NCBI GenBank assembly: GCA_951406725.2
Contig: OX597830.1
Span: 78,244,001 to 78,308,000, forward strand
Length of the DNA: 64,000 nt
Source of the DNA: Octopus vulgaris
Taxonomy: Eukaryota
Reading direction: 5' to 3'
Shown here: positions 1,757-54,823 of the stretch, in pieces
How positions within the stretch are numbered: position 1 is the first letter of the stretch
Layout of the letters: each line of letters starts with the position of its first letter
Made by a program: the position numbers and the translations under genes
Notes under the pieces: model-generated
What the model was told of the DNA's origin: nothing
Seen by the model: only the letters and a program-made list of their open reading frames with translations
Databases searched by the model: none

Positions 1757-2159
1757 ATTTAGTGCGACATGAGATAGAGAATAGGAATCAGTGTTAATTG
1801 AGAAAGAAAGCAAACGCTGCTGGATCATAGATATAGCATGCCCGACTGACAGCAAGATATGCGGTAAGGAAGAAAGAATAGTCGATAGATATGACAGGTT
1901 AGCTTGGGAGGTTAAGCAGTTGTGGTCGATGAAAAAGGTGGTAGCAGTACCAATAATTGTCGGAGCCCTAGGGAACGGTGAGTAAAGATCTTGAGAAGTA
2001 CATGGAACAAATAGGGGCTGCAATATGGGTGGAGTACAGCACTGCTTGGAACCAAATACTCCGGATGGTGCTCGAAAAATAAGGAGTGTTGCCTTAGTTC
2101 ACTGGTAGTGAACAGCTGGCACCGTAGTACATCTCCAGCGATAGAAGCTGTGCAAAGGC

Positions 2160-2160
<1 letters not shown>
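1757..2160 (+). mobile_element. R4/Dong-like LINE 3' fragment (RLE endonuclease domain)
   Basis: CWIIDIACPTD...KEERIVDRYDRLAWEVKQLW...VPIIVGALG; (AAT)n on both sides. Confidence 0.8.
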
Positions 2161-2221
<61 letters not shown>

Positions 2222-2222
<1 letters not shown>

Positions 2223-3093
2223 CCCTTAGTGGCTGACGATATGTGCATCTCTGATCACGAGCAGAAGTAGTGGGGGGGGGGCATCATAGCCATGTGTTGA
2301 GAGGGATTCTTTGGGGTTTGAATAATTCACCTCTGGAAACATGGGTGGTTCTTTCAACATCCTTAAACAACCCTTATTCAGGGACCTTTTGAGCGGGATG
2401 GGCTACTCAACCCGAAGAAAATTCTAACTGGGCCCCACCTGCAAGGTCATGTGCTGTTTATCTTGATATGAGATCACCATGTCGCGCACATATGGTTGTG
2501 ATGCATGTGCCTGGTGTACCTTTATCAGACGGGTAGTCATGATGGGTATATTGGGCTTCGTATATTTTACCCCAGTGTCACTTTGATGGCATGCACTGCT
2601 CTCTCACTCAATAATAATAATAATATTAATAGTGTCTTGGTATAAAAGATGGGCTACAGCAATTATCCTGCTGAATACCACAGATTTCCTTGTCAGTTGT
2701 TTGACCGTAACCAGTTAAACATATCCTTTAGTGGCTGACGATATGTGCATCTCTAATCACCAGTAGAAATAGTGGGGGAGCCTCACAGCTATGTGCTGAG
2801 AGGAATTCTTTGGAGTTCGGATAATTCACTTCTGGAAACATGGGTGTTTCGTTCAACATCCTAAAACAAACCTTATTCAAGAACCTATTAAGCGGAATGG
2901 GCTTCTCGACCCGAAGAAAATTCTAACTGGGCCCCACCTGCAAGGTCATGCCCTGTTTACCTTGATATGAGATCACCATATCGCGTACATATGGTTGTGA
3001 TGCATGTGACGGGTAGTCATGGTAGGTATACTGGGCCTCGTATATTTTACCCCAGTGTCACTTTGATGGCATGCACTGCTCTCTCACCCACTC
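2222..3093 (+). mobile_element. Two tandem copies of a non-coding (AAT)n-tailed element, probably the 3' region of a Dong-like LINE
   Basis: Copies 2222-2610 and 2635-3093 share sequence and end CTGCTCTCTCA(CCCA)CTC(AAT)n; 5' ends differ. Confidence 0.7.
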
Positions 3094-3121
3094 AATAATA
3101 ATAATAATAATAATAATAATG

Positions 3122-3236
<115 letters not shown>

Positions 3237-3494
3237 TGATAAAATAGTATGTCCTTGTTTTGACACAATATCTTCAATCCCGGTAGACACAATATCTTCA
3301 ATCAACATCACGATATTGGATACTGTGTGACATCTTAAATAATTAGAATAATAAGCAATGGTTTCAAAGTTTGGCACAAGACCAGCAGTTTCAGGGGAGA
3401 GGCTAAGTCGATTACATCGACCCATAGTATCCAAATGGTTCTTATTTTATCGATCATAAAAGGATGAAAGGCAAAGTCGGCCCGCACATAAATA

Positions 3495-3830
3495 ATTGGC
3501 TGATGGCTGGGAGCAGAAACATCTACATGGCAAATATGTAGCCCGCAGCAAACAAGCAGACACATACAAGTGGCTACAGAGCTCAGAGCTGAAGGCAGAG
3601 GGTGAAAGCTTCATCTTAGTTGCTCAAGATCCAAGATTATTAACCTGGAACAATCAGTTCAATCTTATAAAAAATGTAGTAGATCCAAAGTGCCGATTCT
3701 GCAATGATGAGATTGAAACTGGAGAACCTAATTTCTGGATGCTAAATTTTAGCACTGGTGGAGTATCAGTCAGGTTATGAAAGAGTTTGTCCAATATCTA
3801 CACTGGTTAATATGTCTATATTGTAAATCA
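3495..3830 (+). mobile_element. R4/Dong-like LINE internal fragment
   Basis: WEQKHLHGKY...WLQSSELKAEGESFILVAQD...CRFCNDEIET matches the region translated at ~63670-63900. Confidence 0.75.
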
Positions 3831-4289
3831 AAACATATGTATGTGTGATAACTGATATGATATTAGACTATTCTCTTTACCCAATAAACGGCGATCGCAT
3901 AGGAAAAAAAACACTGGTTTAACTAGTGATTTAATTTCACTGATCCTATATTACCTGGGTTGGGTCGCAAAATGAGGACTATTTTGTTTAATCCTGTCGT
4001 CGCATTAAATGAGGCAGGATTTGTATTTTCGTTTATACATTTTTATTTTGTGTAAACTTAAGATTGAAATTTGAAGAATGTCTTTCGCGTCATAATCTAT
4101 TTCTTTATATTGCATTTCCTTTCTATGGCTTTGTACTTCTTAATTACTGCGTTGTTAATGAAGTAGTTCTATTTCAAACAAATTGTGATTGGTTCTGCTA
4201 TCTGTTTTTCATTAATTCATAACTAAGTGAAACAACATTGTTATGCTGTAATTGTTTTTCTTTTTATTATCATTGGTCGTCAGAATAAG

Positions 4290-5920
4290 GCGGCGAGCTG
4301 GCAGAAACGTTAGCACGCCGGATGAAATACGTAGCCGTTACGTTCTGAGTTCAAATTCCGCGGAGGTCGACTTTGCCATTCATCCTTTCGGAGTCGATAA
4401 ATTAAGTACCAGTTACGCACTGGGTTCGATATAAGCGACTTAATCCGTTTGTATGTCCTTGTTTGTCCCCCTCTGGGTATAGCCCCTTGTTGGTAGTAAA
4501 GAAATAGGTATTTCGTCTGCCGTTACGTTCTGAGTTCAAATTCCGCCGAGGTCGACTTTGCCTTTCATCCTTTCGGGGTCGATAAATTAAGTACCAGTTG
4601 CGTACTGGAGTCGATCTAATCCCTTTGTCTGTCCTTGTTTGTCCCCTCTATGTTTAGCCCCTTGTGGGCAATAAAGAAATAAGAATCGTTACCGCACCGA
4701 GTGAAATACTCAACGACATTTCGTCCGTCTTTACCTTCTGAGTTCAAATTCAACCGAGGTCAACTTTACTTTTCATAATTTCGGGGTCGACAAAATAAAT
4801 ACCAGTTGAGTTCTGTAATTGACTATCCCCTTCCCCCAAAATTACAGGCTTTGTGCTTACAGCAGAAGGGAGTATTTATCCTGAAAATATGTTCCGTTTC
4901 AAAACTTTAACATGAGACCAAGAATTTCAGAAAGCGTGGGTTAACCGAATGCATCGAACCGAGTACATGGTTGGTGGACGGGAGAAAGGCAAAGATGATT
5001 TTCGATGGATTTGAACTCAGAACTTAAAAATTCAGAAGAAAGCCGTCAATAAATTTTGTCTGACTCGCTAACAATTCTGCCAGCTAACCGCCTTATTTGA
5101 ACTTAAAATTATTCTCTCTAATTTTGGTACAGTGCCGTTCATTTTTATAGAAGGGAGCAAGCTGATAACATTGACCTCCAGTACTTGTCTGGTACTTTAT
5201 TTTATCGACCCCTGCAGGATGAAAAGCAAAGTTGACCTCGGCGGAGATGGAACTCAGAACGTTAAGTGTCATAATAAAAATTTTAAAAAAACGCTGCTAA
5301 ACGTAATTCAGTTTGACGGGTTAGCGGTTCCACCAGCTCAGAGTCTTAGGAGAATATAATATAATGGTTTCAAATTTTATCACAAGGGCAGCGATTTTAG
5401 CGTAGGGGATGCGTCGATTACATCGAACCCTGTGTATCACTGTCACATATTTGATCGACTTCGAAAGGATGGAAGGCAAAGTCGACCTCGGCGGAATTTG
5501 AACACAGAACGTAAAGACAGACGAAATACCTCTATGCATTTCGCCCGGCATGCCAACGCTTCTGCCAGCCTTAAGAGAATGTAATATAATGTTTTCTATT
5601 ATAGGCGCAAGGTCTGAAATTTGGTAGGGGATGGGGACACTCGATTACATCGACCGCAGTGCGTAACTGGTACCTATTTAATCGACCCCGAAAAATGAAG
5701 GTCAAAGTTGACCTCGGCGGAATTTGAACTCAGAACGTAACGGCAGACGAAATACGGCTAATCGACCCCAGTGCGTAACTGGTACGTATTTAATCGACCC
5801 CGAAAGGATGAAAGGCATAGTCGACCTCGGTGGAATTTGAACTCAGAACGTAACGGCAGACAAAATACGGCTACGCATTTCGCCCGGCGTGCTAACGTTT
5901 CTGCCAACTCGCCGCCTTAG
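4290..5920. mobile_element. Cluster of SINE family A copies (+ at 4290-4870, - at 4910-5920)
   Basis: Repeated GTTCTGAGTTCAAATTCCGCCGAGGTCGACTTTGCCTTTCATCC and its reverse complement. Confidence 0.8.
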
Positions 5921-12129: not shown

Positions 12130-12310
12130 TAAACTAGGGTATCCACAAGCTTTCAGTTGTCTTTCGAATGCTTAAAATCCTCCTTTTTTATCGAAGCTCC
12201 ACAGGACTGTATATTCCAATCTCTCTCAACCACTTTTTTACATCTTTACTTACAGTTCCCAATGTACCAATTATTACAGGGATTACAGTTTTCATACTCC
12301 TACAGGTTTC
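12130..12310 (-). mobile_element. R4/Dong-like LINE 3' fragment
   Basis: MKTVIPVIIGTLGTVSKDVKKWLREIG, an RLE C-terminal motif. Confidence 0.65.
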
Positions 12311-12327
12311 CTCCTCCTCCTCCTCAT

Positions 12328-12390
<63 letters not shown>

Positions 12391-12391
<1 letters not shown>

Positions 12392-12637
12392 GAGTGAGAG
12401 AGCAGTGCATGCCATTAAAGCGACACTGGGGTAAAATATACGAAGCCCAGCATACCCATCATGACTACCCGTTTGATAAGGATACACCAGGCACATGCAT
12501 CACAACCATATGTGTGCGACATGGTGATCTCATATCATGATAAACAGTGCATGACCTTGCAGGTGGGACCCAGTTAGAATTTTCTTCTTGTCGAGTAGCC
12601 CATCTCTCTCAAAAGGTCCCTGAATAAGGATTGTCTT
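12391..12637 (-). mobile_element. Shorter copy of the same (AAT)n-tailed element
   Basis: Reverse complement of ~2370-2610, within (ATT)n. Confidence 0.7.
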
Positions 12638-20798: not shown

Positions 20799-21074
20799 TT
20801 AGGCGCATAATGATACCATAAAGGAAGAATTCAGTTGTCATTAACTGTGACTAAGAGTCCCGGCGCACCTACATAGCTAGAAATAAGAGTTAAAATACTC
20901 TTAATGCTATATAGGAAGAGGCGGGATGCATACACACAAATGCTGACAAAAAAGGCAACCGCCCCATGCCGACTCGAAAATCCCAGACTAGACGTTTAGT
21001 TTCGCCTATCCTGTAGGCAACGTCAGTGAGCTTGTGTGTATACATCAGCGCTCTGTGTCTTTTTGGTCGGCACC

Positions 21075-21620
21075 AGCCTTTTTGGTCGGCTGAAAGTAGT
21101 TTTGGCATAAACTTGATAGATACGCGTCTCATATACAAATCTTCGGTGATAATGGACTGAACTGAACCGTAACTAATCTGCACATCCTCTGATAACTCAT
21201 GGATGGTGTTTCGATGATTTCCCCTTACAGCTTCACGCACATCAGCGATGTTTTTCTCATTTCTGCTGGTTGCGGGTCTCCCAGAACGTTCGTGAATACC
21301 GACATTTTTTCGGCCATTCTGGAAACGTCTGAACCACTCGTACACTTGTGTGCGGCTCATACACTCCTCTCTATACACTCTCTGCAACTTTGCATAGGTC
21401 TCTGAGCAGGTATCGCCAAGACAACTTTCTCTGTCATGGTCAATGTGACGATCACACGCTACATAAGATTCCAAGCACTGCTTTAAAGAGCGAAAGTGAG
21501 CTAGAACGTTAAAACTTAGTGTGTAGGCACAGCAGAGATGAAGGTCAATCTTTGCCAAGCGACTTCACTTGCGTGCTTTAGCTTCGTTACAGTCCCAATT
21601 CTTATTCAACAGATCTTGTA
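21075..21620 (-). mobile_element. Mariner transposon 5' remnant (HTH domain)
   Basis: TYAKLQRVYREECMSRTQVYEWFRRFQNG...ERSGRP...VSIKFMPKLLSADQK, a mariner N-terminus with a WVPxxL-like motif; truncated before the DDD domain. Confidence 0.85.
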
Positions 21621-22877: not shown

Positions 22878-23315
22878 CCGTGAGAACCAAAATCTTGGAG
22901 ACATGTGGTCAGAAAATGTTTCTAATTTTACCTTTCTATAAACCACATGACACAAGTGAGGCTGGAAAAAAGCTAAAAGAAAAACGGTTTATCAAAATAT
23001 TCAAACCTGTTTTAAACGGAAGTAACAACAATAATATAACAACCAGTTAATGATGTGGATTAAAAAATATAAACAAGTTACGGAATATATCGGTACGCCT
23101 GGAAAATTATGATGTTTAAGAACATGTGGAGTGATCAAAAAGGTATTCTAAAAATTCAGCTGGTTGGAGCATTCTAAGAGGTACTAAAGTTATCAAGAAC
23201 CCATCTGTCAGTTAAACACATTTGAAATCTGAGTACACTATGTATGAAAGCGCTAATTTTGTTAAAAATACCATTAACAAAAACGTGAAAACCAGACTGT
23301 TTTAACTTTATTCAA

Positions 23316-38699: not shown

Positions 38700-39673
38700 T
38701 AATTACACCTATCAATACGAACTACTTACGGTGACAGTGATATATCCCTCCTCCACCAATACTACGCTTAACCTCCCCCTATCTCTCGTTCTCTCCTTCC
38801 TCCTTTCCTCCCTCTGTCAGGCTTGCGTTGAACACTCCTCCTACTTCAGTCTTTCTTTAGTCTACCTCCCTCTTACACTCACTTTAAGCATCTGCCTGTC
38901 ACCCCATCTTGCACTTTCTTTTTTCCCTCTCACGGTCTATCTATCTATCTATTTGTGTGTCTGTCTCTCTATCAATATCTTTTAACCCCTTTTTTCTTCA
39001 AATTTCTTTATTTATCAATCGATCACTCCTCATTTCTTTCATTATGCCTTGCTTTCATTTCGCATACTCTCTTTATCCTCCTCTCCATTCTTCTTCTCCT
39101 TTTCTCTCCCTTCTTTTTCTCCTTTTCTCTTCCTTCTACCGTTCTCTAACTCTTTCATTTTGTATCCCCTCTTTATCATCCTCTCCCTTCTTCTCCTTTT
39201 CTCTCCCTTCTTTTTCTCCTTTTCTCTCCCTTCTACCGTTCTCTAACTCTTTCATTTTGTATCCCCTCTTTATCCTCCTCTCCCTTCTTCTCCTTTTCTC
39301 TCCCTTCTACCATTCTCTAACCCTACTACCCTCTCGTCATATTTTCAATCTCACACATTTTCTTATATTTTTCTTTTTTTACCTTCTCTTTTCTTTCCTC
39401 TCCCACTCTCTTTCCTCCAATCTTTCTCCCTTTCATCGTGCAGTTCTCCTTCTCTCCCACACTATCTCCACCACTTCGTTTTCTTTTTCTCACATTAACT
39501 TCGTTTTCTTCTTACACTCACTTTAACCTTTTCTTTCACGCTTTCATTTTCTCTCTCTCTAGCATTATTTCCTTTCTCCTCGTCTTACTTCCGCCTCCCC
39601 AATTTCCTTTCTGTTTTCCTCTCTTTCTCAATAAGCCTCTCACTACTACTTTGTCCACCTCACTCCCTCTCTA

Positions 39674-41769: not shown

Positions 41770-42122
41770 CACCACCTGGCGAAGTCTTTCAATTCAGGAT
41801 TTGGGCATCAAGGCCCATTCGAGCAGAGAGTTATTGTTTGCGGAGACATATCCGGTTGTGGGTGGTTTGTCCGGGACTGTTTGAAGGAATTTGTCCAAAG
41901 ACTTCTTGAATTTTGTGTGGTCAGTTTCTGTTTTGACGTGTCCTGATGGTGTAATGTTAAAAAGGGCGGGACCAATTGAGGTGAAATAATTGTGCCGTAT
42001 TGTTGTCATGAGATGCGATTTAGATTTTTGCTGTGGACGGATGGCACGTGGTCCAAGCCTTGGATGTATTTTGAAGGTGATGCCAACATCATTCGGACAG
42101 TGCTGATGGAATATTTTCCATA
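41770..42122 (-). mobile_element. CR1/L2-group LINE ORF2 C-terminal fragment
   Basis: HNYFTSIGPALFNITP...FKKSLDKFLQTVPDKP...NSLLEW resembles CR1-group ORF2 ends. Confidence 0.6.
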
Positions 42123-43353
42123 ATATATATATATATTATATAAGTTCAGTAAAATTTAGATTCAGTTGATTATGGTACTTAAAGTTAAATGCACCAGAAT
42201 TTAGTATGGTATTATCCATATAATTCAAAATGGGGTGATTATGATCAAATTAAGCAACAAGGATATCCAGAGGTAATGCAGTACGATCGTTTCATGCAAC
42301 TCCATTTAATTGAACAATGCAAATATTACACCAATTAAAATTTTTTTAAATTGATGTAAACATGTATTAGTGACTGTGTTTGTGTCTCCCCACCACCGCT
42401 TGACAAGCTGTGTGGGTGTGTTATCCAGCGGTTCGGCGTAAGAGAGCGATACAATATGTACCAGGCTCTAAAGAATGTAAGTACATGTGCCGATTGGTCC
42501 GACTACAACTTTTCAAGGCGGTGCTCCAGCATGGCCTCTGTCCAATGACTGAAGCAAGTTAAAGATAAAGAGATGCGTGCGTGTGTGTGTGTGTGTGTAA
42601 CGGACATGTATCTTCTGTCTCGACAAGTAAGATATCGTCTCCGGGGATAAAAATTATTTAAAAAAGAATTTATTAAATATAAAATATATGGTTCCCTCTT
42701 CTTTATATATAACAAAGTGGAGTTGTAGGGTACCGCACGAGTGGAATTATATACGAAAGAAGGTTTGAAAATGCAATTTTAAGAGATGTTTATTTACTTT
42801 ACCGGTTTCACTCTTTGGAAAAAGATTGTCAAAAGTAACATGTAGATGTTTGGTTGCGTTATTATTATACATTCTTTGGTGACAAGAGCATGTTGAGAAT
42901 ATTGTTCAGTAAATATTGGTATACTACGTGTATACCAATATTTACTGAACATTTTTAATAATTCCTTCTGGAAATTATCTTGAGAATGTATAATATATTT
43001 GTTGTAATCTTTTGTGCCCATTATTTCAATGAGCTTGTTAAACTCTTTTATATTCTCAACATGCTCTTGTCACCAAAGAATGTATATTTATATGGATTAT
43101 AGTACTCTGTGTCAACCAATATTCTGTGCATGTTTGAATATACAGATACAATACCAATATCAATTCCTTCTGGAAACTATCTTAAGCATGTCCTTGAGAA
43201 TGATTATTTATGTAGTAATCTTTTGTGCCTAATATTTTAAGGAACTTGTTAAACTTTTTTATGTCCTTAACATGTCCTTGTTACCAAAGACTGTATTTAT
43301 GTAATGTAGCAATTTGTAACAACCAATAATTAACGCAACCAAACTTCTACATG

Positions 43354-46703: not shown

Positions 46704-46739
<36 letters not shown>

Positions 46740-49700
46740 CCTGACAATTTCTTGCTAAGTTTTCCTTATTAAGTAGTTGTCCTTAATTGTTAAATTTTTA
46801 TTCCGAAAAAACTTTTCCTCTCCCGAAATGCAATTCGTTAAAGTTTGTCATTTGACCGATTGTAATATATGTAAACTCACCCATGTGCTTCGTTGATGTT
46901 GAACAGTTAGCTGATCAACTTAAGCGAAGCAGGGTCGTTGTTTATTTATAATGCATTCTGGCCTGCTGATGAGTACGTAAGTATGAAATCACTGTGATAC
47001 AGGTCTATATTTTTAAATGTCTTACTTTGAAAAATTGCATTCGGTGGGATTAGTAATATTTTTGGTAGAAATGACTAATTGTCCCTCTTAGCGTTTGGCA
47101 TGTATATATATAATGCCTTCTGGCATGTATGTATAATGCCCTCTATATATAAATTAATATGTTCAATAAGAAATAATTATTTTCGAAATTTTTTCTCTTA
47201 TGAGGTTTTTACGCTATCTACCTGACAATTTCTTGCTAAGTTTTCCTTATTAAGTAGTTGTCCTTAATTGTTAAATTTTTATTCCGAAAAAACTTTTCCT
47301 CTCCCGAAATGCAATTCGTTAAAGTTTGTCATTTGACCGATTGTAATATATGTAAACTCACCCATGTGCTTCGTTGATGTTGAACAGTTAGCTGATCAAC
47401 TTAAGCGAAGCAGGGTCGTTGTTTATTTATAATGCATTCTGGCCTGCTGATGAGTACGTAAGTATGAAATCACTGTGATACAGGTCTATATTTTTAAATG
47501 TCTTACTTTGAAAAATTGCATTCGGTGGGATTAGTAATATTTTTGGTAGAAATGACTAATTGTCCCTCTTAGCGTTTGGCATGTATATATATAATGCCTT
47601 CTGGCATGTATGTATAATGCCCTCTATATATAAATTAATATGTTCAATAAGAAATAATTATTTTCGAAATTTTTTCTCTTATGAGGTTTTTACGCTATCT
47701 ACCTGACAATTTCTTGCTAAGTTTTCCTTATTAAGTAGTTGTCCTTAATTGTTAAATTTTTATTCCGAAAAAACTTTTCCTCTCCCGAAATGCAATTCGT
47801 TAAAGTTTGTCATTTGACCGATTGTAATATATGTAAACTCACCCATGTGCTTCGTTGATGTTGAACAGTTAGCTGATCAACTTAAGCGAAGCAGGGTCGT
47901 TGTTTATTTATAATGCATTCTGGCCTGCTGATGAGTACGTAAGTATGAAATCACTGTGATACAGGTCTATATTTTTAAATGTCTTACTTTGAAAAATTGC
48001 ATTCGGTGGGATTAGTAATATTTTTGGTAGAAATGACTAATTGTCCCTCTTAGCGTTTGGCATGTATATATATAATGCCTTCTGGCATGTATGTATAATG
48101 CCCTCTATATATAAATTAATATGTTCAATAAGAAATAATTATTTTCGAAATTTTTTCTCTTATGAGGTTTTTACGCTATCTACCTGACAATTTCTTGCTA
48201 AGTTTTCCTTATTAAGTAGTTGTCCTTAATTGTTAAATTTTTATTCCGAAAAAACTTTTCCTCTCCCGAAATGCAATTCGTTAAAGTTTGTCATTTGACC
48301 GATTGTAATATATGTAAACTCACCCATGTGCTTCGTTGATGTTGAACAGTTAGCTGATCAACTTAAGCGAAGCAGGGTCGTTGTTTATTTATAATGCATT
48401 CTGGCCTGCTGATGAGTACGTAAGTATGAAATCACTGTGATACAGGTCTATATCTTTAAATGTCTTACTTTGAAAAATTGCATTCGGTGGGATTAGTAAT
48501 ATTTTTGGTAGAAATGACTAATTGTCCCTCTTAGCGTTTGGCATGTATATATATAATGCCTTCTGGCATGTATGTATAATGCCCTCTATATATAAATTAA
48601 TATGTTCAATAAGAAATAATTATTTTCGAAATTTTTTCTCTTATGAGGTTTTTACGCTATCTACCTGACAATTTCTTGCTAAGTTTTCTTTATTAAGTAG
48701 TTGTCCTTAATTGTTAAATTTTTATTCCGAAAAAACTTTTCCTCTCCCGAAATGCAATTCGTTAAAGTTTGTCATTTGACCGATTGTAATATATGTAAAA
48801 CTCACCCATGTGCTTCGTTGATGTTGAACAGTTAGCTGATCAACTTAAGCGAAGCAGGGTCGTTGTTTATTTATAATGCATTCTGGCCTGCTGATGAGTA
48901 CGTAAGTATGAAATCACTGTGATACAGGTCTATATTTTTAAATGTCTTACTTTGAAAAATTGCATTCGGTGGGATTAGTAATATTTTTGGTAGAAATGAC
49001 TAATTGTCCCTCTTAGCGTTTGGCATGTATATATATAATGCCTTCTGGCATGTATGTATAATGCCCTCTATATATAAATTAATATGTTCAATAAGAAATA
49101 ATTATTTTCGAAATTTTTTCTCTTATGAGGTTTTTACGCTATCTACCTGACAATTTCTTGCTAAGTTTTCCTTATTAAGTAGTTGTCCTTAATTGTTAAA
49201 TTTTTATTCCGAAAAAACTTTTCCTCTCCCGAAATGCAATTCGTTAAAGTTTGTCATTTGACCGATTGTAATATATGTAAACTCACCCATGTGCTTCGTT
49301 GATGTTGAACAGTTAGCTGATCAACTTAAGCGAAGCAGGGTCGTTGTTTATTTATAATGCATTCTGGCCTGCTGATGAGTACGTAAGTATGAAATCACTG
49401 TGATACAGGTCTATATTTTTAAATGTCTTACTTTGAAAAATTGCATTCGGTGGGATTAGTAATATTTTTGGTAGAAATGACTAATTGTCCCTCTTAGCGT
49501 TTGGCATGTATATATATAATGCCTTCTGGCATGTATGTATAATGCCCTCTATATATAAATTAATATGTTCAATAAGAAATAATTATTTTCGAAATTTTTT
49601 CTCTTATGAGGTTTTTACGCTATCTACCTGACAATTTCTTGCTAAGTTTTCCTTATTAAGTAGTTGTCCTTAATTGTTAAATTTTTATTCCGAAAAAACT

Positions 49701-52700
49701 TTTCCTCTCCCGAAATGCAATTCGTTAAAGTTTGTCATTTGACCGATTGTAATATATGTAAACTCACCCATGTGCTTCGTTGATGTTGAACAGTTAGCTG
49801 ATCAACTTAAGCGAAGCAGGGTCGTTGTTTATTTATAATGCATTCTGGCCTGCTGATGAGTACGTAAGTATGAAATCACTGTGATACAGGTCTATATTTT
49901 TAAATGTCTTACTTTGAAAAATTGCATTCGGTGGGATTAGTAATATTTTTGGTAGAAATGACTAATTGTCCCTCTTAGCGTTTGGCATGTATATATATAA
50001 TGCCTTCTGGCATGTATGTATAATGCCCTCTATATATAAATTAATATGTTCAATAAGAAATAATTATTTTCGAAATTTTTTCTCTTATGAGGTTTTTACG
50101 CTATCTACCTGACAATTTCTTGCTAAGTTTTCCTTATTAAGTAGTTGTCCTTAATTGTTAAATTTTTATTCCGAAAAAACTTTTCCTCTCCCGAAATGCA
50201 ATTCGTTAAAGTTTGTCATTTGACCGATTGTAATATATGTAAACTCACCCATGTGCTTCGTTGATGTTGAACAGTTAGCTGATCAACTTAAGCGAAGCAG
50301 GGTCGTTGTTTATTTATAATGCATTCTGGCCTGCTGATGAGTACGTAAGTATGAAATCACTGTGATACAGGTCTATATTTTTAAATGTCTTACTTTGAAA
50401 AATTGCATTCGGTGGGATTAGTAATATTTTTGGTAGAAATGACTAATTGTCCCTCTTAGCGTTTGGCATGTATATATATAATGCCTTCTGGCATGTATGT
50501 ATAATGCCCTCTATATATAAATTAATATGTTCAATAAGAAATAATTATTTTCGAAATTTTTTCTCTTATGAGGTTTTTACGCTATCTACCTGACAATTTC
50601 TTGCTAAGTTTTCCTTATTAAGTAGTTGTCCTTAATTGTTAAATTTTTATTCCGAAAAAACTTTTCCTCTCCCGAAATGCAATTCGTTAAAGTTTGTCAT
50701 TTGACCGATTGTAATATATGTAAACTCACCCATGTGCTTCGTTGATGTTGAACAGTTAGCTGATCAACTTAAGCGAAGCAGGGTCGTTGTTTATTTATAA
50801 TGCATTCTGGCCTGCTGATGAGTACGTAAGTATGAAATCACTGTGATACAGGTCTATATTTTTAAATGTCTTACTTTGAAAAATTGCATTCGGTGGGATT
50901 AGTAATATTTTTGGTAGAAATGACTAATTGTCCCTCTTAGCGTTTGGCATGTATATATATAATGCCTTCTGGCATGTATGTATAATGCCCTCTATATATA
51001 AATTAATATGTTCAATAAGAAATAATTATTTTCGAAATTTTTTCTCTTATGAGGTTTTTACGCTATCTACCTGACAATTTCTTGCTAAGTTTTCCTTATT
51101 AAGTAGTTGTCCTTAATTGTTAAATTTTATTCCGAAAAACTTTTCCTCTCCCGAAATGCAATTCGTTAAAGTTTGTCATTTGACCGATTGTAATATATGT
51201 AAACTCACCCATGTGCTTCGTTGATGTTGAACAGTTAGCTGATCAACTTAAGCGAAGCAGGGTCGTTGTTTATTTATAATGCATTCTGGCCTGCTGATGA
51301 GTACGTAAGTATGAAATCACTGTGATACAGGTCTATATTTTTAAATGTCTTACTTTGAAAAATTGCATTCGGTGGGATTAGTAATATTTTTGGTAGAAAT
51401 GACTAATTGTCCCTCTTAGCGTTTGGCATGTATATATATAATGCCTTCTGGCATGTATGTATAATGCCCTCTATATATAAATTAATATGTTCAATAAGAA
51501 ATAATTATTTTCGAAATTTTTTTCTCTTATGAGGTTTTTACGCTATCTACCTGACAATTTCTTGCTAAGTTTTCCTTATTAAGTAGTTGTCCTTAATTGT
51601 TAAATTTTTATTCCGAAAAAAACTTTTCCTCTCCCGAAATGCAATTCGTTAAAGTTTGTCATTTGACCGATTGTAATATATGTAAACTCACCCATGTGCT
51701 TCGTTGATGTTGAACAGTTAGCTGATCAACTTAAGCGAAGCAGGGTCGTTGTTTATTTATAATGCATTCTGGCCTGCTGATGAGTACGTAAGTATGAAAT
51801 CACTGTGATACAGGTCTATATTTTTAAATGTCTTACTTTGAAAAATTGCATTCGGTGGGATTAGTAATATTTTTGGTAGAAATGACTAATTGTCCCTCTT
51901 AGCGTTTGGCATGTATATATATAATGCCTTCTGGCATGTATGTATAATGCCCTCTATATATAAATTAATATGTTCAATAAGAAATAATTATTTTCGAAAT
52001 TTTTTCTCTTATGAGGTTTTTACGCTATCTACCTGACAATTTCTTGCTAAGTTTTCCTTATTAAGTAGTTGTCCTTAATTGTTAAATTTTTATTCCGAAA
52101 AAACTTTTCCTCTCCCGAAATGCAATTCGTTAAAGTTTGTCATTTGACCGATTGTAATATATGTAAACTCACCCATGTGCTTCGTTGATGTTGAACAGTT
52201 AGCTGATCAACTTAAGCGAAGCAGGGTCGTTGTTTATTTATAATGCATTCTGGCCTGCTGATGAGTACGTAAGTATGAAATCACTGTGATACAGGTCTAT
52301 ATTTTTAAATGTCTTACTTTGAAAAATTGCATTCGGTGGGATTAGTAATATTTTTGGTAGAAATGACTAATTGTCCCTCTTAGCGTTTGGCATGTATATA
52401 TATAATGCCTTCTGGCATGTATGTATAATGCCCTCTATATATAAATTAATATGTTCAATAAGAAATAATTATTTTCGAAATTTTTTCTCTTATGAGGTTT
52501 TTACGCTATCTACCTGACAATTTCTTGCTAAGTTTTCCTTATTAAGTAGTTGTCCTTAATTGTTAAATTTTTATTCCGAAAAAACTTTTCCTCTCCCGAA
52601 ATGCAATTCGTTAAAGTTTGTCATTTGACCGATTGTAATATATGTAAACTCACCCATGTGCTTCGTTGATGTTGAACAGTTAGCTGATCAACTTAAGCGA

Positions 52701-54010
52701 AGCAGGGTCGCTGTTTATTTATAATGCATTCTGGCCTGCTGATGAGTACGTAAGTATGAAATCACTGTGATACAGGTCTATATTTTTAAATGTCTTACTT
52801 TGAAAAATTGCATTCGGTGGGATTAGTAATATTTTTGGTAGAAATGACTAATTGTCCCTCTTAGCGTTTGGCATGTATATATATAATGCCTTCTGGCATG
52901 TATGTATAATGCCCTCTATATATAAATTAATATGTTCAATAAGAAATAATTATTTTCGAAATTTTTTCTCTTATGAGGTTTTTACGCTATCTACCTGACA
53001 ATTTCTTGCTAAGTTTTCCTTATTAAGTAGTTGTCCTTAATTGTTAAATTTTTATTCCGAAAAAACTTTTCCTCTCCCGAAATGCAATTCGTTAAAGTTT
53101 GTCATTTGACCGATTGTAATATATGTAAACTCACCCATGTGCTTCGTTGATGTTGAACAGTTAGCTGATCAACTTAAGCGAAGCAGGGTCGTTGTTTATT
53201 TATAATGCATTCTGGCCTGCTGATGAGTACGTAAGTATGAAATCACTGTGATACAGGTCTATATTTTTAAATGTCTTACTTTGAAAAATTGCATTCGGTG
53301 GGATTAGTAATATTTTTGGTAGAAATGACTAATTGTCCCTCTTAGCGTTTGGCATGTATATATATAATGCCTTCTGGCATGTATGTATAATGCCCTCTAT
53401 ATATAAATTAATATGTTCAATAAGAAATAATTATTTTCGAAATTTTTTTCTCTTATGAGGTTTTTACGCTATCTACCTGACAATTTCTTGCTAAGTTTTC
53501 CTTATTAAGTAGTTGTCCTTAATTGTTAAATTTTTATTCCGAAAAAACTTTTCCTCTCCCGAAATGCAATTCGTTAAAGTTTGTCATTTGACCGATTGTA
53601 ATATATGTAAACTCACCCATGTGCTTCGTTGATGTTGAACAGTTAGCTGATCAACTTAAGCGAAGCAGGGTCGTTGTTTATTTATAATGCATTCTGGCCT
53701 GCTGATGAGTACGTAAGTATGAAATCACTGTGATACAGGTCTATATTTTTAAATGTCTTACTTTGAAAAATTGCATTCGGTGGGATTAGTAATATTTTTG
53801 GTAGAAATGACTAATTGTCCCTCTTAGCGTTTGGCATGTATATATATAATGCCTTCTGGCATGTATGTATAATGCCCTCTATATATAAATTAATATGTTC
53901 AATAAGAAATAATTATTTTCGAAATTTTTTCTCTTATGAGGTTTTTACGCTATCTACCTGACAATTTCTTGCTAAGTTTTCCTTATTAAGTAGTTGTCCT
54001 TAATTGTTAA
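46740..54010 (+). mobile_element. Tandem array of ~481-bp units (15 full plus a 54-bp partial), each with a type I hammerhead ribozyme; retrozyme-like or Penelope pLTR-like multimer
   Basis: CCTGACAATTTC recurs at 46740, 47221, 47702, 48183, 48664, 49146, 49627, 50108, 50589, 51070, 51550, 52032, 52513, 52994, 53476 and 53957. Units differ almost only in homopolymer length. No ORF >=60 aa lies within the units. (TA)n flanks both sides. Confidence 0.9.
46960..47005 (+). ncRNA. Type I hammerhead ribozyme (first of 15 copies in the array)
   Basis: GGCCTG-CTGATGA-GTAC(GTAA)GTAT-GAAA-TCAC(T)GTGA-TA-CAGGTC: helix I GGCCTG/CAGGTC, intact CUGAUGA and GAAA core, helix II with GNRA loop, palindromic helix III; predicted cleavage after A46999. 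Confidence 0.9.
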
Positions 54011-54823
54011 GTTATATATATATATATATATATATATAGGTATACATATGTACATATACATATTCTTATATATATGTATATACACACACACATATACATA
54101 TATACGTTTATATACATATTATGTGTGTATATGTGTATATATGATCGTATGTATCTCTTATTATAAATCTATATATAAATTGTTGTATGCATACATATAT
54201 AACGAAATTTATTACATATATCAAACGATCTTTATTTGTTGACAAGATATCCCTAAGTAAATAGTGTTCAACTTATAATATATTATATAACTATGAAATA
54301 GAACAGAATGCAATATATATGTGTGTATGTATGTTTATGTGTGTGTATGTGTGAGCGTATATATATATATTATATCATATTATATTATATTATATTATAT
54401 TATATTATATTATATTATATATGTATCTGTGTTTGTGTGAGAGTATGTGTATTTGTTTAGGAGATGGTATAGCTGTGTGATTAACAACTCGTTCGGTGAC
54501 CACACGATTTTGCGTTCAGCCCCACTGCGAGGCACTTTATGCAAATGTCTTCTGCTAAAGCCCCAGGGTGATCAATAACTTGGGAGTGGATTATTTATAA
54601 AAGATACCGCGTAAACTTGTCTTTCATATAAGCCTGTGTGTGGAGGGAGGTCTCTGTTTTTGTGTTACCCAACTCCTCAGCGCATGACAAAACCGGTGTA
54701 CGTTTGCCTACGTCCCTGCGGCAAGACAGTCCGATAGGATAGGTACCATACATGTGTGTATGTGTGCGCGTGCGTTTATGTGAATGCACGCATGAGTGTG
54801 TATGCATGTACGTATGTATGTAC

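Follow-up and report, generated by a model that had tools for sequence, protein, structure and literature searches.

A tandem array of hammerhead ribozyme units in Octopus vulgaris as a probable insertion of a young non-LTR retrozyme family with two fixed 3′ ends

Introduction

A 64,000-nt stretch of the Octopus vulgaris genome (assembly GCA_951406725.2, contig OX597830.1, positions 78,244,001 to 78,308,000, forward strand; hereafter the window) contains a tandem array of a 481-nt non-coding unit that carries a hammerhead ribozyme, and the locus raises the question of what kind of element this is and how it was inserted. Computational analysis of the array and of related loci indicates that it is probably one insertion of a young, protein-free family of retrozymes without long terminal repeats (non-LTR), moved by an enzyme of the Penelope-like element (PLE) type. 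The retrozyme reading had been put forward in a preliminary description of the window, and is borne out here by a dispersed, young, tandem family that is free of open reading frames (ORFs), has one type I hammerhead per unit, and has a ribozyme fold that is conserved in a sister family.

Results

The array consists of ORF-free units with an intact hammerhead

The array comprises 15 units of 480-482 bp (46740-53956; unit starts at 46740, 47221 ... 53476) and a 54-bp partial unit (53957 to about 54010) that are 99% identical. Analysis of the window with Tandem Repeats Finder (TRF) gave a period of 481, 15.1 copies and 99% matches over 46734-54010, in agreement with the 15 nearly identical units first described. 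The unit is 481 nt long with about 32% GC, and the units differ in 12 alignment columns, 11 of which are single-unit changes and one of which, a T added to a T run, is found in two units. Such variation, almost only of singletons, fits recent rolling synthesis or recent expansion. The lack of an ORF was upheld, as no stop-to-stop frame of at least 100 amino acids (aa) was present anywhere in the array, and hence no ORF combining reverse transcriptase (RT) and GIY-YIG domains of the autonomous PLE type; an ARAGORN scan of the window found no tRNA. The (TA)n reported on both sides was located in two tracts that border the array (Table 1).

The hammerhead, described as intact in each unit, is identical letter for letter in 15/15 units. 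Its consensus core (C3 U4 G5 A6 N7 G8 A9, G12 A13 A14 A15, U16 H17) is complete by comparison with PMC3088659, and the core-adjacent pairs are C-G in stem I, a G-U wobble in stem II and A-U in stem III. The core positions place the predicted cut after 46999, 47480 and so on, as originally proposed. The unit also has a GUAA loop and U1.7, a combination reported for other hammerheads that make a minimal tertiary contact between U1.7 and a loop A (PMC11875169). Fold prediction gave z = -8.2 for the linear monomer and z = -8.5 for the circular monomer. For the circle, the prediction forms stems I and II (p of at least 0.93) but leaves stem III unformed (p about 0.02), its letters being taken up by part of the core; this trapped core could act as a lock that prevents the circle from being cut, or could mean that the ribozyme is weak. 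The stem III palindrome is predicted to form a duplex of -12.1 kcal/mol in isolation.

The unit belongs to a young family dispersed in (TA)n

A search of the 2.8 Gb genome with the unit, a check proposed in the preliminary description, showed that it is dispersed at many loci, with 228 matches, mostly 93-100% identical, from the 39 scored of 966 candidates. The exact 23-nt ribozyme core has 340 genome matches, compared with 0 for the reversed control. The 58 loci that were mapped (the window, the 38 top scorers and 19 held-out loci from the first 100 listed pattern matches) are not a random sample of the family. Nearly all of them sit in (TA)n, and they hold from 1 to 31 units. Distances between units were 0.0015 within a locus and 0.016 between loci (102 full units). 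The insertion ends are truncation points with no LTR organisation, and a target-site duplication, which exceeds 4 bp when present in this class, could not be delimited because the flanks are themselves (TA)n.

None of the 138 family variants, whether template-level or singleton, falls in the ribozyme core. Template-level variants break 19 predicted pairs where 28 are expected (P = 0.004), and singletons likewise break 33 where 41 are expected (P = 0.026); template-level variants also break fewer pairs of the minus-strand fold (P = 0.006). The signal of selection on the whole fold is weak and partly circular.

In the 31-unit C1 array and at loci L063 and L065, variants are common to non-adjacent units, and these three arrays were therefore also reshaped after insertion. 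The 31-unit array has a short inverted head (L169-L170; G000:C1:64639650-64655250). At L063, which has 7 units, units 1, 4 and 7 carry one variant, a period of three that could come from a trimer template or from later exchange. A looser hammerhead pattern gave 348 genome matches compared with the 340 exact ones and gave no lead to a helper element; among the 100 matches listed there was a single clearly different, well-formed motif. This motif (L138; G000:C4:114173244-114173283) is hammerhead-like, is of a third sequence type, and has no tandem copy matching the pattern in the flanking sequence displayed.

Insertions have two fixed 3′ ends and a one-of-each rule

The 3′ ends in the 58 loci fall into two fixed clusters about 120 nt apart round the unit, cluster A (49 ends, 40 of them at unit positions 53 or 56) and cluster B (46 ends, 35 of them at unit positions 414-416), neither of which lies at the ribozyme cut, predicted at unit position 260 and far from both. 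The 5′ starts are scattered. Linear cleaved templates, for which 5′ ends would be expected at the cut, were rejected, as only 1 of the 116 scored starts lies within 3 nt of it. By class, 39 loci are clean head-to-head inversions, 12 are single arms and 7 were too complex for the script. Six single arms end at A, the window array among them, and six end at B. The clean inversions consist of 35 with one A and one B end, none with A+A, none with B+B, and four with one unclassifiable end, which gives p = 6e-11 for a one-of-each rule (35/35). The held-out inverted loci alone gave the same picture (n = 12; 10 A+B, 2 unclassifiable).

The two arms of 43 inverted loci (L062 and L182 being left out as complex) share 58 non-majority letters and have 35 differences over 12,366 columns. 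Of these shared letters, 23 occur in at most two loci, and the rate of sharing was 0.0047 per column as against at most 0.0012 in 1000 re-pairings. The two arms of a locus, having private variants in common, thus derive from a single type of template. The ribozyme site is crossed by 83 of 96 arms, and at least twice by 40. Either arm may be the longer one, each still ending at its own fixed site, and many inversion junctions overlap by 1-6 nt. The insertions thus have the 5′ truncation, inverted 5′ copy, tail on one end and microsatellite target of PLE-type insertions.

A sister family conserves the ribozyme fold and the two ends

A sister retrozyme family was found beside locus L039, with a unit of about 470-490 nt that is 72-77% identical to the window unit where blastn aligns them, and with 465 exact matches to a core pattern in the genome. 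Its hammerhead has a long stem II with a G-C at its base, and other stem I letters. Pairing in this hammerhead reached 97.1% of 416 cells with 19 two-sided changes (16 distinct copies). No shuffle of 500 was as high, and slid controls were 26-40% paired; the sister copies are related, so the shuffle test overstates the covariation. The number of pairs with a two-sided change (4) is not unusual (65/500 shuffles). The covariation supports stems I and II, stem III having no compensatory change, and by these comparisons the hammerhead fold is kept in the sister family by compensatory changes. The sister family also has two fixed 3′ ends, and its predicted rod layout is similar to that of the window unit, with z = -2.3 for the sister unit compared with -8.5 for the window unit as a circle. 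It is older and more diverse (85-97% identity among copies, mostly of 1-2 units). Its triplet is usually the rare AUC, together with A or C at core position 7, a combination that would avoid the mispairing of AUC with the core proposed in PMC1636495.

A resident Penelope-like element is a candidate helper

A search for GIY-YIG domains gave 148 listed matches, 17 of which lie in 781-aa open frames with RT and GIY-YIG. In these frames RVT_1 scores just under its cut-off, GIY-YIG is present, and a CxxxxCxxC motif, a linker motif of the Neptune and Nematis clades (PMC8557442), precedes the nuclease. Most copies are 97-100% identical. Its copies stop at either of two points, about 35 nt from each other and both bordered by (TA)n (23 plain ends and 8 tailed), and the inverted copies L104, L106 and L192 have the tail on one arm only. 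All six ends, from the two retrozyme families and the PLE, have a pyrimidine-rich part followed by an AT-rich stretch finishing in AAAT. In favour of a link, one terminal pattern, built from the sister A end and the PLE tail, retrieved 27 genome matches (22 sister A ends, 3 PLE tails, 1 ambiguous and 1 neither; control 0). Mobilisation by PLEs, introduced in the preliminary description as something such repeats are thought to undergo, gains direct genomic support from the insertion ends, the target and this resident element. The young 781-aa RT and GIY-YIG family is, by a slight preference, the likeliest helper.

Several further observations concern the PLEs. Locus L110 has an extra 479-aa upstream frame (581-2020) with no Pfam match, overlapping the 781-aa frame (1939-4284) in another phase, and this frame is also found in L102 and L112. 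Canonical endonuclease-containing (EN+) PLEs are described as single-ORF elements. Minimal hammerheads of two kinds lie close to the 3′ ends of two PLE families (L110:5160-5200; L116, L117 and L123), one with U3-A8 and a CAUG palindrome and one with A7 and a GUAC palindrome, and both families end in (TA)n with short tails. The resident PLE thus appears to carry the minimal U3-A8 hammerhead, a form described in PMC4209133. Close relatives of the PLE protein (43-50%; P0030, P0042, P0056, P0059, P0071, P0097 and P0109) are filed under bacterial gill symbionts of clams and are probably host DNA in those assemblies. In the window itself, a PLE akin to the L116 family (54% identity) is represented by a short terminal piece of GIY-YIG (22895-23017, plus strand).

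The unit is present in public sequencing runs

The unit was found in 20 of the 24 listed runs, under five organism labels and with none on record as RNA. Contigs of four runs guessed to be RNA, which may be DNA, cover 28-29 of 29 unit bins and join unit end to unit start, and run X9, from another organism label, has loose (AT)n ends at A (46795) and B (47154). As contigs, they are evidence that the unit is present and its ends conserved, and do not bear on transcription, strand or circularity. On the ribozyme strand of 46740-47220, places with A>G outnumbered those with T>C in all four runs (X1, X5, X9 and X12), with counts of 7/2, 15/11, 24/4 and 9/4. The A>G excess is partly due to the subtype of the window array (known genomic differences) and partly unexplained, with adenosine-to-inosine (A-to-I) editing of the rod as a possibility. 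Genomic template-level sites are A/G at 20 and C/T at 15 (p = 0.18), and kinship among loci inflates a count of 52 G>A and 5 C>T. Given the subtype differences, this p value and the kin-inflated counts, an RNA-editing footprint is not established.

Other features of the window

The features of the array are collected in Table 1. Elsewhere in the window there is a fragment of a Mariner-type transposase (20890-21564, minus strand; HTH_48, E 4e-8), and TRF reported a 113-bp dimer of a SINE-like (short interspersed element) segment (5649-5873) and a 97-bp pyrimidine-rich repeat of 2.6 copies (39052-39308). Three frames, at 1664-2098, 12188-12499 and 41794-42135, presumably resemble decayed ends of non-LTR retrotransposons; the latter two gave no Pfam match.

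Table 1 Features of the retrozyme array and related copies (window positions unless a locus is named)
Feature	Position	Strand	Basis
Retrozyme insertion, 15 full units and 54-bp partial, single arm, 5′-truncated, 3′ end at site A	46740..54010	+	TRF, unit alignment, locus mapping
Left (TA)n target tract	46705..46739	.	
Right (TA)n target tract	54013..54142	.	
First repeat unit, 481 bp, no ORF	46740..47220	+	
Long rod, unit 55-116 with 274-333, bearing a branch hairpin (119-219) and the hammerhead	46794..47072	+	prediction
Type I hammerhead, copy 1 of 15	46960..47005	+	sequence, folds, identical in 15/15 units
Hammerhead stem I, 6 bp	46960-46965/47000-47005	+	
Hammerhead core CUGAUGA	46966-46972	+	
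Hammerhead stem II, 4 bp, G-U base pair at base, GUAA loop	46973-46984	+	
Hammerhead GAAA	46985-46988	+	
Hammerhead stem III, palindromic	46988-46998	+	
A17	46999	+	
Predicted cut site, first copy	46999..47000	+	core positions plus 33 nt; cleavage predicted
Predicted cut sites 2-8	after 47480, 47961, 48442, 48924, 49405, 49886, 50367	+	
Predicted cut sites 9-15	after 50848, 51327, 51810, 52291, 52772, 53253, 53735	+	
U1.7, candidate tertiary partner of last A in GUAA loop	47006	+	sequence
Predicted released monomer, 65% paired as circle; 14 such between 15 cut sites	47000..47480	+	fold prediction
Site B, first fixed 3′ end elsewhere in genome (putative internal RT start)	47153..47155	+	35/46 B-class ends
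Tail of about 120 nt from site B to site A, containing hairpins	47155..47276	+	
Site A, unit positions 53-56 shown in unit 2 (putative second start)	47273..47276	+	40/49 A-class ends
Partial last unit, ends at site A	53957..54010	+	
Sister-family copies	L039:400-1400; L139-L168; L189-L215		

Discussion

A proposed route of insertion

The retrozyme reading suggests the following route. The plus strand would be transcribed, and the hammerhead would release 481-nt monomers from the multimer, whose ligation would give circles with extensive pairing. By analogy with the class, in which RtcB ligated other retrozymes in vitro (PMC7229834), we moderately favour such cleavage and ligation, and lean to a similar degree towards a circle as the template. 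A PLE protein would then nick (TA)n, which has the same sequence on both strands, and the nicked ends would prime internal reverse transcription at the AT-rich sites B and A of one RNA. The mapped loci themselves display both ends, the target and a single type of template, and the enzymology is suggested by the lizard (anole) PLE, which nicks and extends both strands of AT-rich DNA, is a predicted dimer, and in vitro starts internally at two sites separated by the length of its genomic tail (PMC11167929). Each complementary DNA (cDNA) would pass the ribozyme site, often repeatedly, and stop at a scattered point, and two would be joined head to head; one surviving priming would leave a single arm, as in the window. 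The anatomy of these arms is observed, and the process is our reading of it. Long arrays would later be reshaped by unequal exchange, which is shown for the three other arrays named above, not for the window array.

A more specific version of this route is tentative, and we would stop short of calling it probable. A single closed 481-nt RNA would sit on a PLE dimer, be primed from both strands of the (TA)n nick at the two fixed sites 120 nt apart, and be copied round by both enzymes, and copying round the circle with strand displacement would yield two overlapping concatemer arms. The retrozyme may owe its compatibility with the helper to mimicry of a short AT-rich motif at the end, and not to descent from the terminal repeat of the helper.

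Evidence weighing against this route

A number of results count against this interpretation, in addition to the non-random choice of mapped loci. An Rfam hammerhead scan, proposed in the preliminary description, was negative: the whole window at the gathering score gave 0 matches and no hammerhead family, and a search at E<=10 of 46740-47400 (661 bases) gave three unrelated weak matches and no hammerhead. Because Rfam does not recognise the motif, other tests were needed to judge whether it is a hammerhead. The triplet at the cut is AUA, with U7 in the core, and stem II opens with a G-U wobble; AUA is found in natural hammerheads and is among the slower triplets after transcription (PMC1636495). 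In the predicted ground state part of the core (UGAU) is paired with stem III, and for the circle to adopt the active fold would take 3.0 kcal/mol. Activation of a dimer through the stem III palindrome gained nothing in fold prediction of a two-unit transcript (-206.7 for the double hammerhead, -207.4 for two single ones, -213.4 when free). Uncleaved RNA was the dominant template of the anole PLE in vitro (PMC11167929), and in a 2026 preprint only one of nine predicted retrozymes of Xenopus cleaved (bioRxiv 10.64898/2026.07.22.740005).

The link to a particular PLE also meets difficulties. The tail is about 120 nt and not the PLE-typical 30-40 bp. The terminal pattern with 27 genome matches had been modelled on the very families that it found, and it matches the A end of the sister family, not that of the window family. 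No blastn similarity of the unit or sister unit to PLE ends was found in 70 loci, 69 of them around GIY-YIG matches, where the sole hits are sister-family copies inserted nearby. No terminal-repeat homology to an autonomous PLE was found among the PLE copies compared, which represent some of the genome's PLE families. The genome also has several further PLE families with ends in (TA)n and, with no longer similarity to the 781-aa PLE, that element is a candidate partner only.

Alternative explanations

The main rival is that the family is a non-autonomous PLE parasite copied from uncleaved linear multimers, with no circle and the same two-site priming. Its hammerhead would be weak or protein-dependent, and long arrays such as that of the window would serve as masters. 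The trapped core with its cost of 3 kcal/mol, the preference of the anole PLE for unprocessed RNA (PMC11167929) and the eight of nine Xenopus candidates without cleavage (bioRxiv 10.64898/2026.07.22.740005) all speak for this explanation, and arms that cross the cut site fit it equally well. However, the 23 variants that occur in at most two loci are common to both arms, as a single monomer template gives, and the exact variant set of the window array or of the 31-unit C1 array was found in 0 of 44 scored loci. Unseen master arrays are possible, since the family is only partly sampled. The ribozyme core, moreover, is unchanged among the 138 variants, and its fold is kept by compensation in the sister family. 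Copying from linear multimers is considered rather unlikely, though worth serious attention.

A second alternative, which we regard as improbable, is that a single cDNA folds back and primes itself to produce the inverted arm, as suggested for rotifer PLEs (PMC3846280), in place of a second target priming. Self-priming would also give arms with identical variants, and the short overlaps at many junctions agree with it. Against this, either arm can be the longer with each ending at its own fixed site, single arms are equally frequent at A and B (6 and 6), junction partners are by inspection mostly not partners in the predicted fold, and two start sites have been demonstrated biochemically for a PLE (PMC11167929).

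An ordinary satellite or minisatellite amplified at the DNA level, with the hammerhead as a relic or a chance match, is very improbable: the variants shared among non-adjacent units in the C1 31-mer, L063 and L065 are a sign of local unequal exchange, but occurrence on many contigs, fixed 3′ ends, (TA)n targeting, 5′ truncation, inversion and covariation are not satellite features. It is scarcely credible that the 15-mer is an over-expanded assembly artefact, in spite of units that are 99.9% alike, as individual units have distinguishing differences, the number of units at other loci ranges from 1 to 31, and the end of the unit is joined to its start in contigs from four public runs, so that at most the copy number is uncertain.

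Relation to known elements

The retrozyme family of the window resembles the animal non-LTR retrozymes of coral, mussel and axolotl (PMC7229834, where newt satellite and schistosome repeats are also cited) in its tandem ORF-free units with one type I hammerhead each, GC under 50%, predicted self-paired circle, many loci and PLEs in the same genome. It differs from them in its insertion in (TA)n with no visible target duplication, in a longer, palindromic stem III, and in the double fixed 3′ end and head-to-head inversions, which are not described in the results and discussion of that paper. The monomer had been called rather long in the preliminary description, and its 481 nt do exceed the 150-450 bp of that first account of the class, yet they fall inside the 51-972 bp of the 2026 preprint. 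The vertebrate retrozymes presented in the latter as PLE derivatives (bioRxiv 10.64898/2026.07.22.740005) are also alike in their co-occurrence with PLEs and in ranging from monomers to long multimers. In that preprint 24 of 57 Xenopus families match known repeats, nearly all of them PLE terminal repeats, and its sampling included no mollusc. The link to PLEs is made there by terminal-repeat similarity and co-occurrence, and here by insertion anatomy and a short terminal motif.

Among the PLEs themselves, EN+ elements (PMC8557442, PMC3846280, PMC11167929) share with the window family the 5′ truncation, inverted 5′ copy, one-end tail, microsatellite target and a sense-strand hammerhead; tail and inversion in PLEs are treated in PMC3846280 and also in a 2021 preprint. 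The window family differs in having no ORF, a tail of about 120 nt compared with 30-40, and a full hammerhead where the resident PLE appears to have the minimal U3-A8 form. MRC1 and similar Chlamys PLEs (PMC8557442) are likewise non-autonomous, multicopy head-to-tail insertions moved by a PLE. Unlike the window family, Chlamys non-autonomous elements generally share 3′ sequence with their autonomous partner, and the MRC1 clade is described as lacking canonical hammerheads (PMC8557442).

Significance

The family is a further non-LTR retrozyme, and its insertion anatomy is the new part, giving unusually direct mechanistic evidence. It is probably the first such family noted in its animal group; no cephalopod retrozyme and no analysis of inversions or tails of retrozymes was found in literature searches, and the supplements of PMC7229834 or of the 2026 preprint could list the family. 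The enzyme and template that move animal retrozymes have been a proposal since 2020, and tandem and inverted PLE insertion is also an open question. In one genome, dozens of young insertions of the family follow a strict rule, two presumed start sites are mapped, the template is small and non-coding, and a candidate helper is present in intact form. As an in vitro assay exists for another PLE (PMC11167929), both questions are directly testable. If copying of one circle by two enzymes is true, it would generally explain the rule that PLEs have a tail on one arm only, and the arrays would directly record rolling-circle retrotransposition in an animal genome. For RNA-templated genome writing, too, a helper able to insert a small foreign circle at (TA)n would be of interest.

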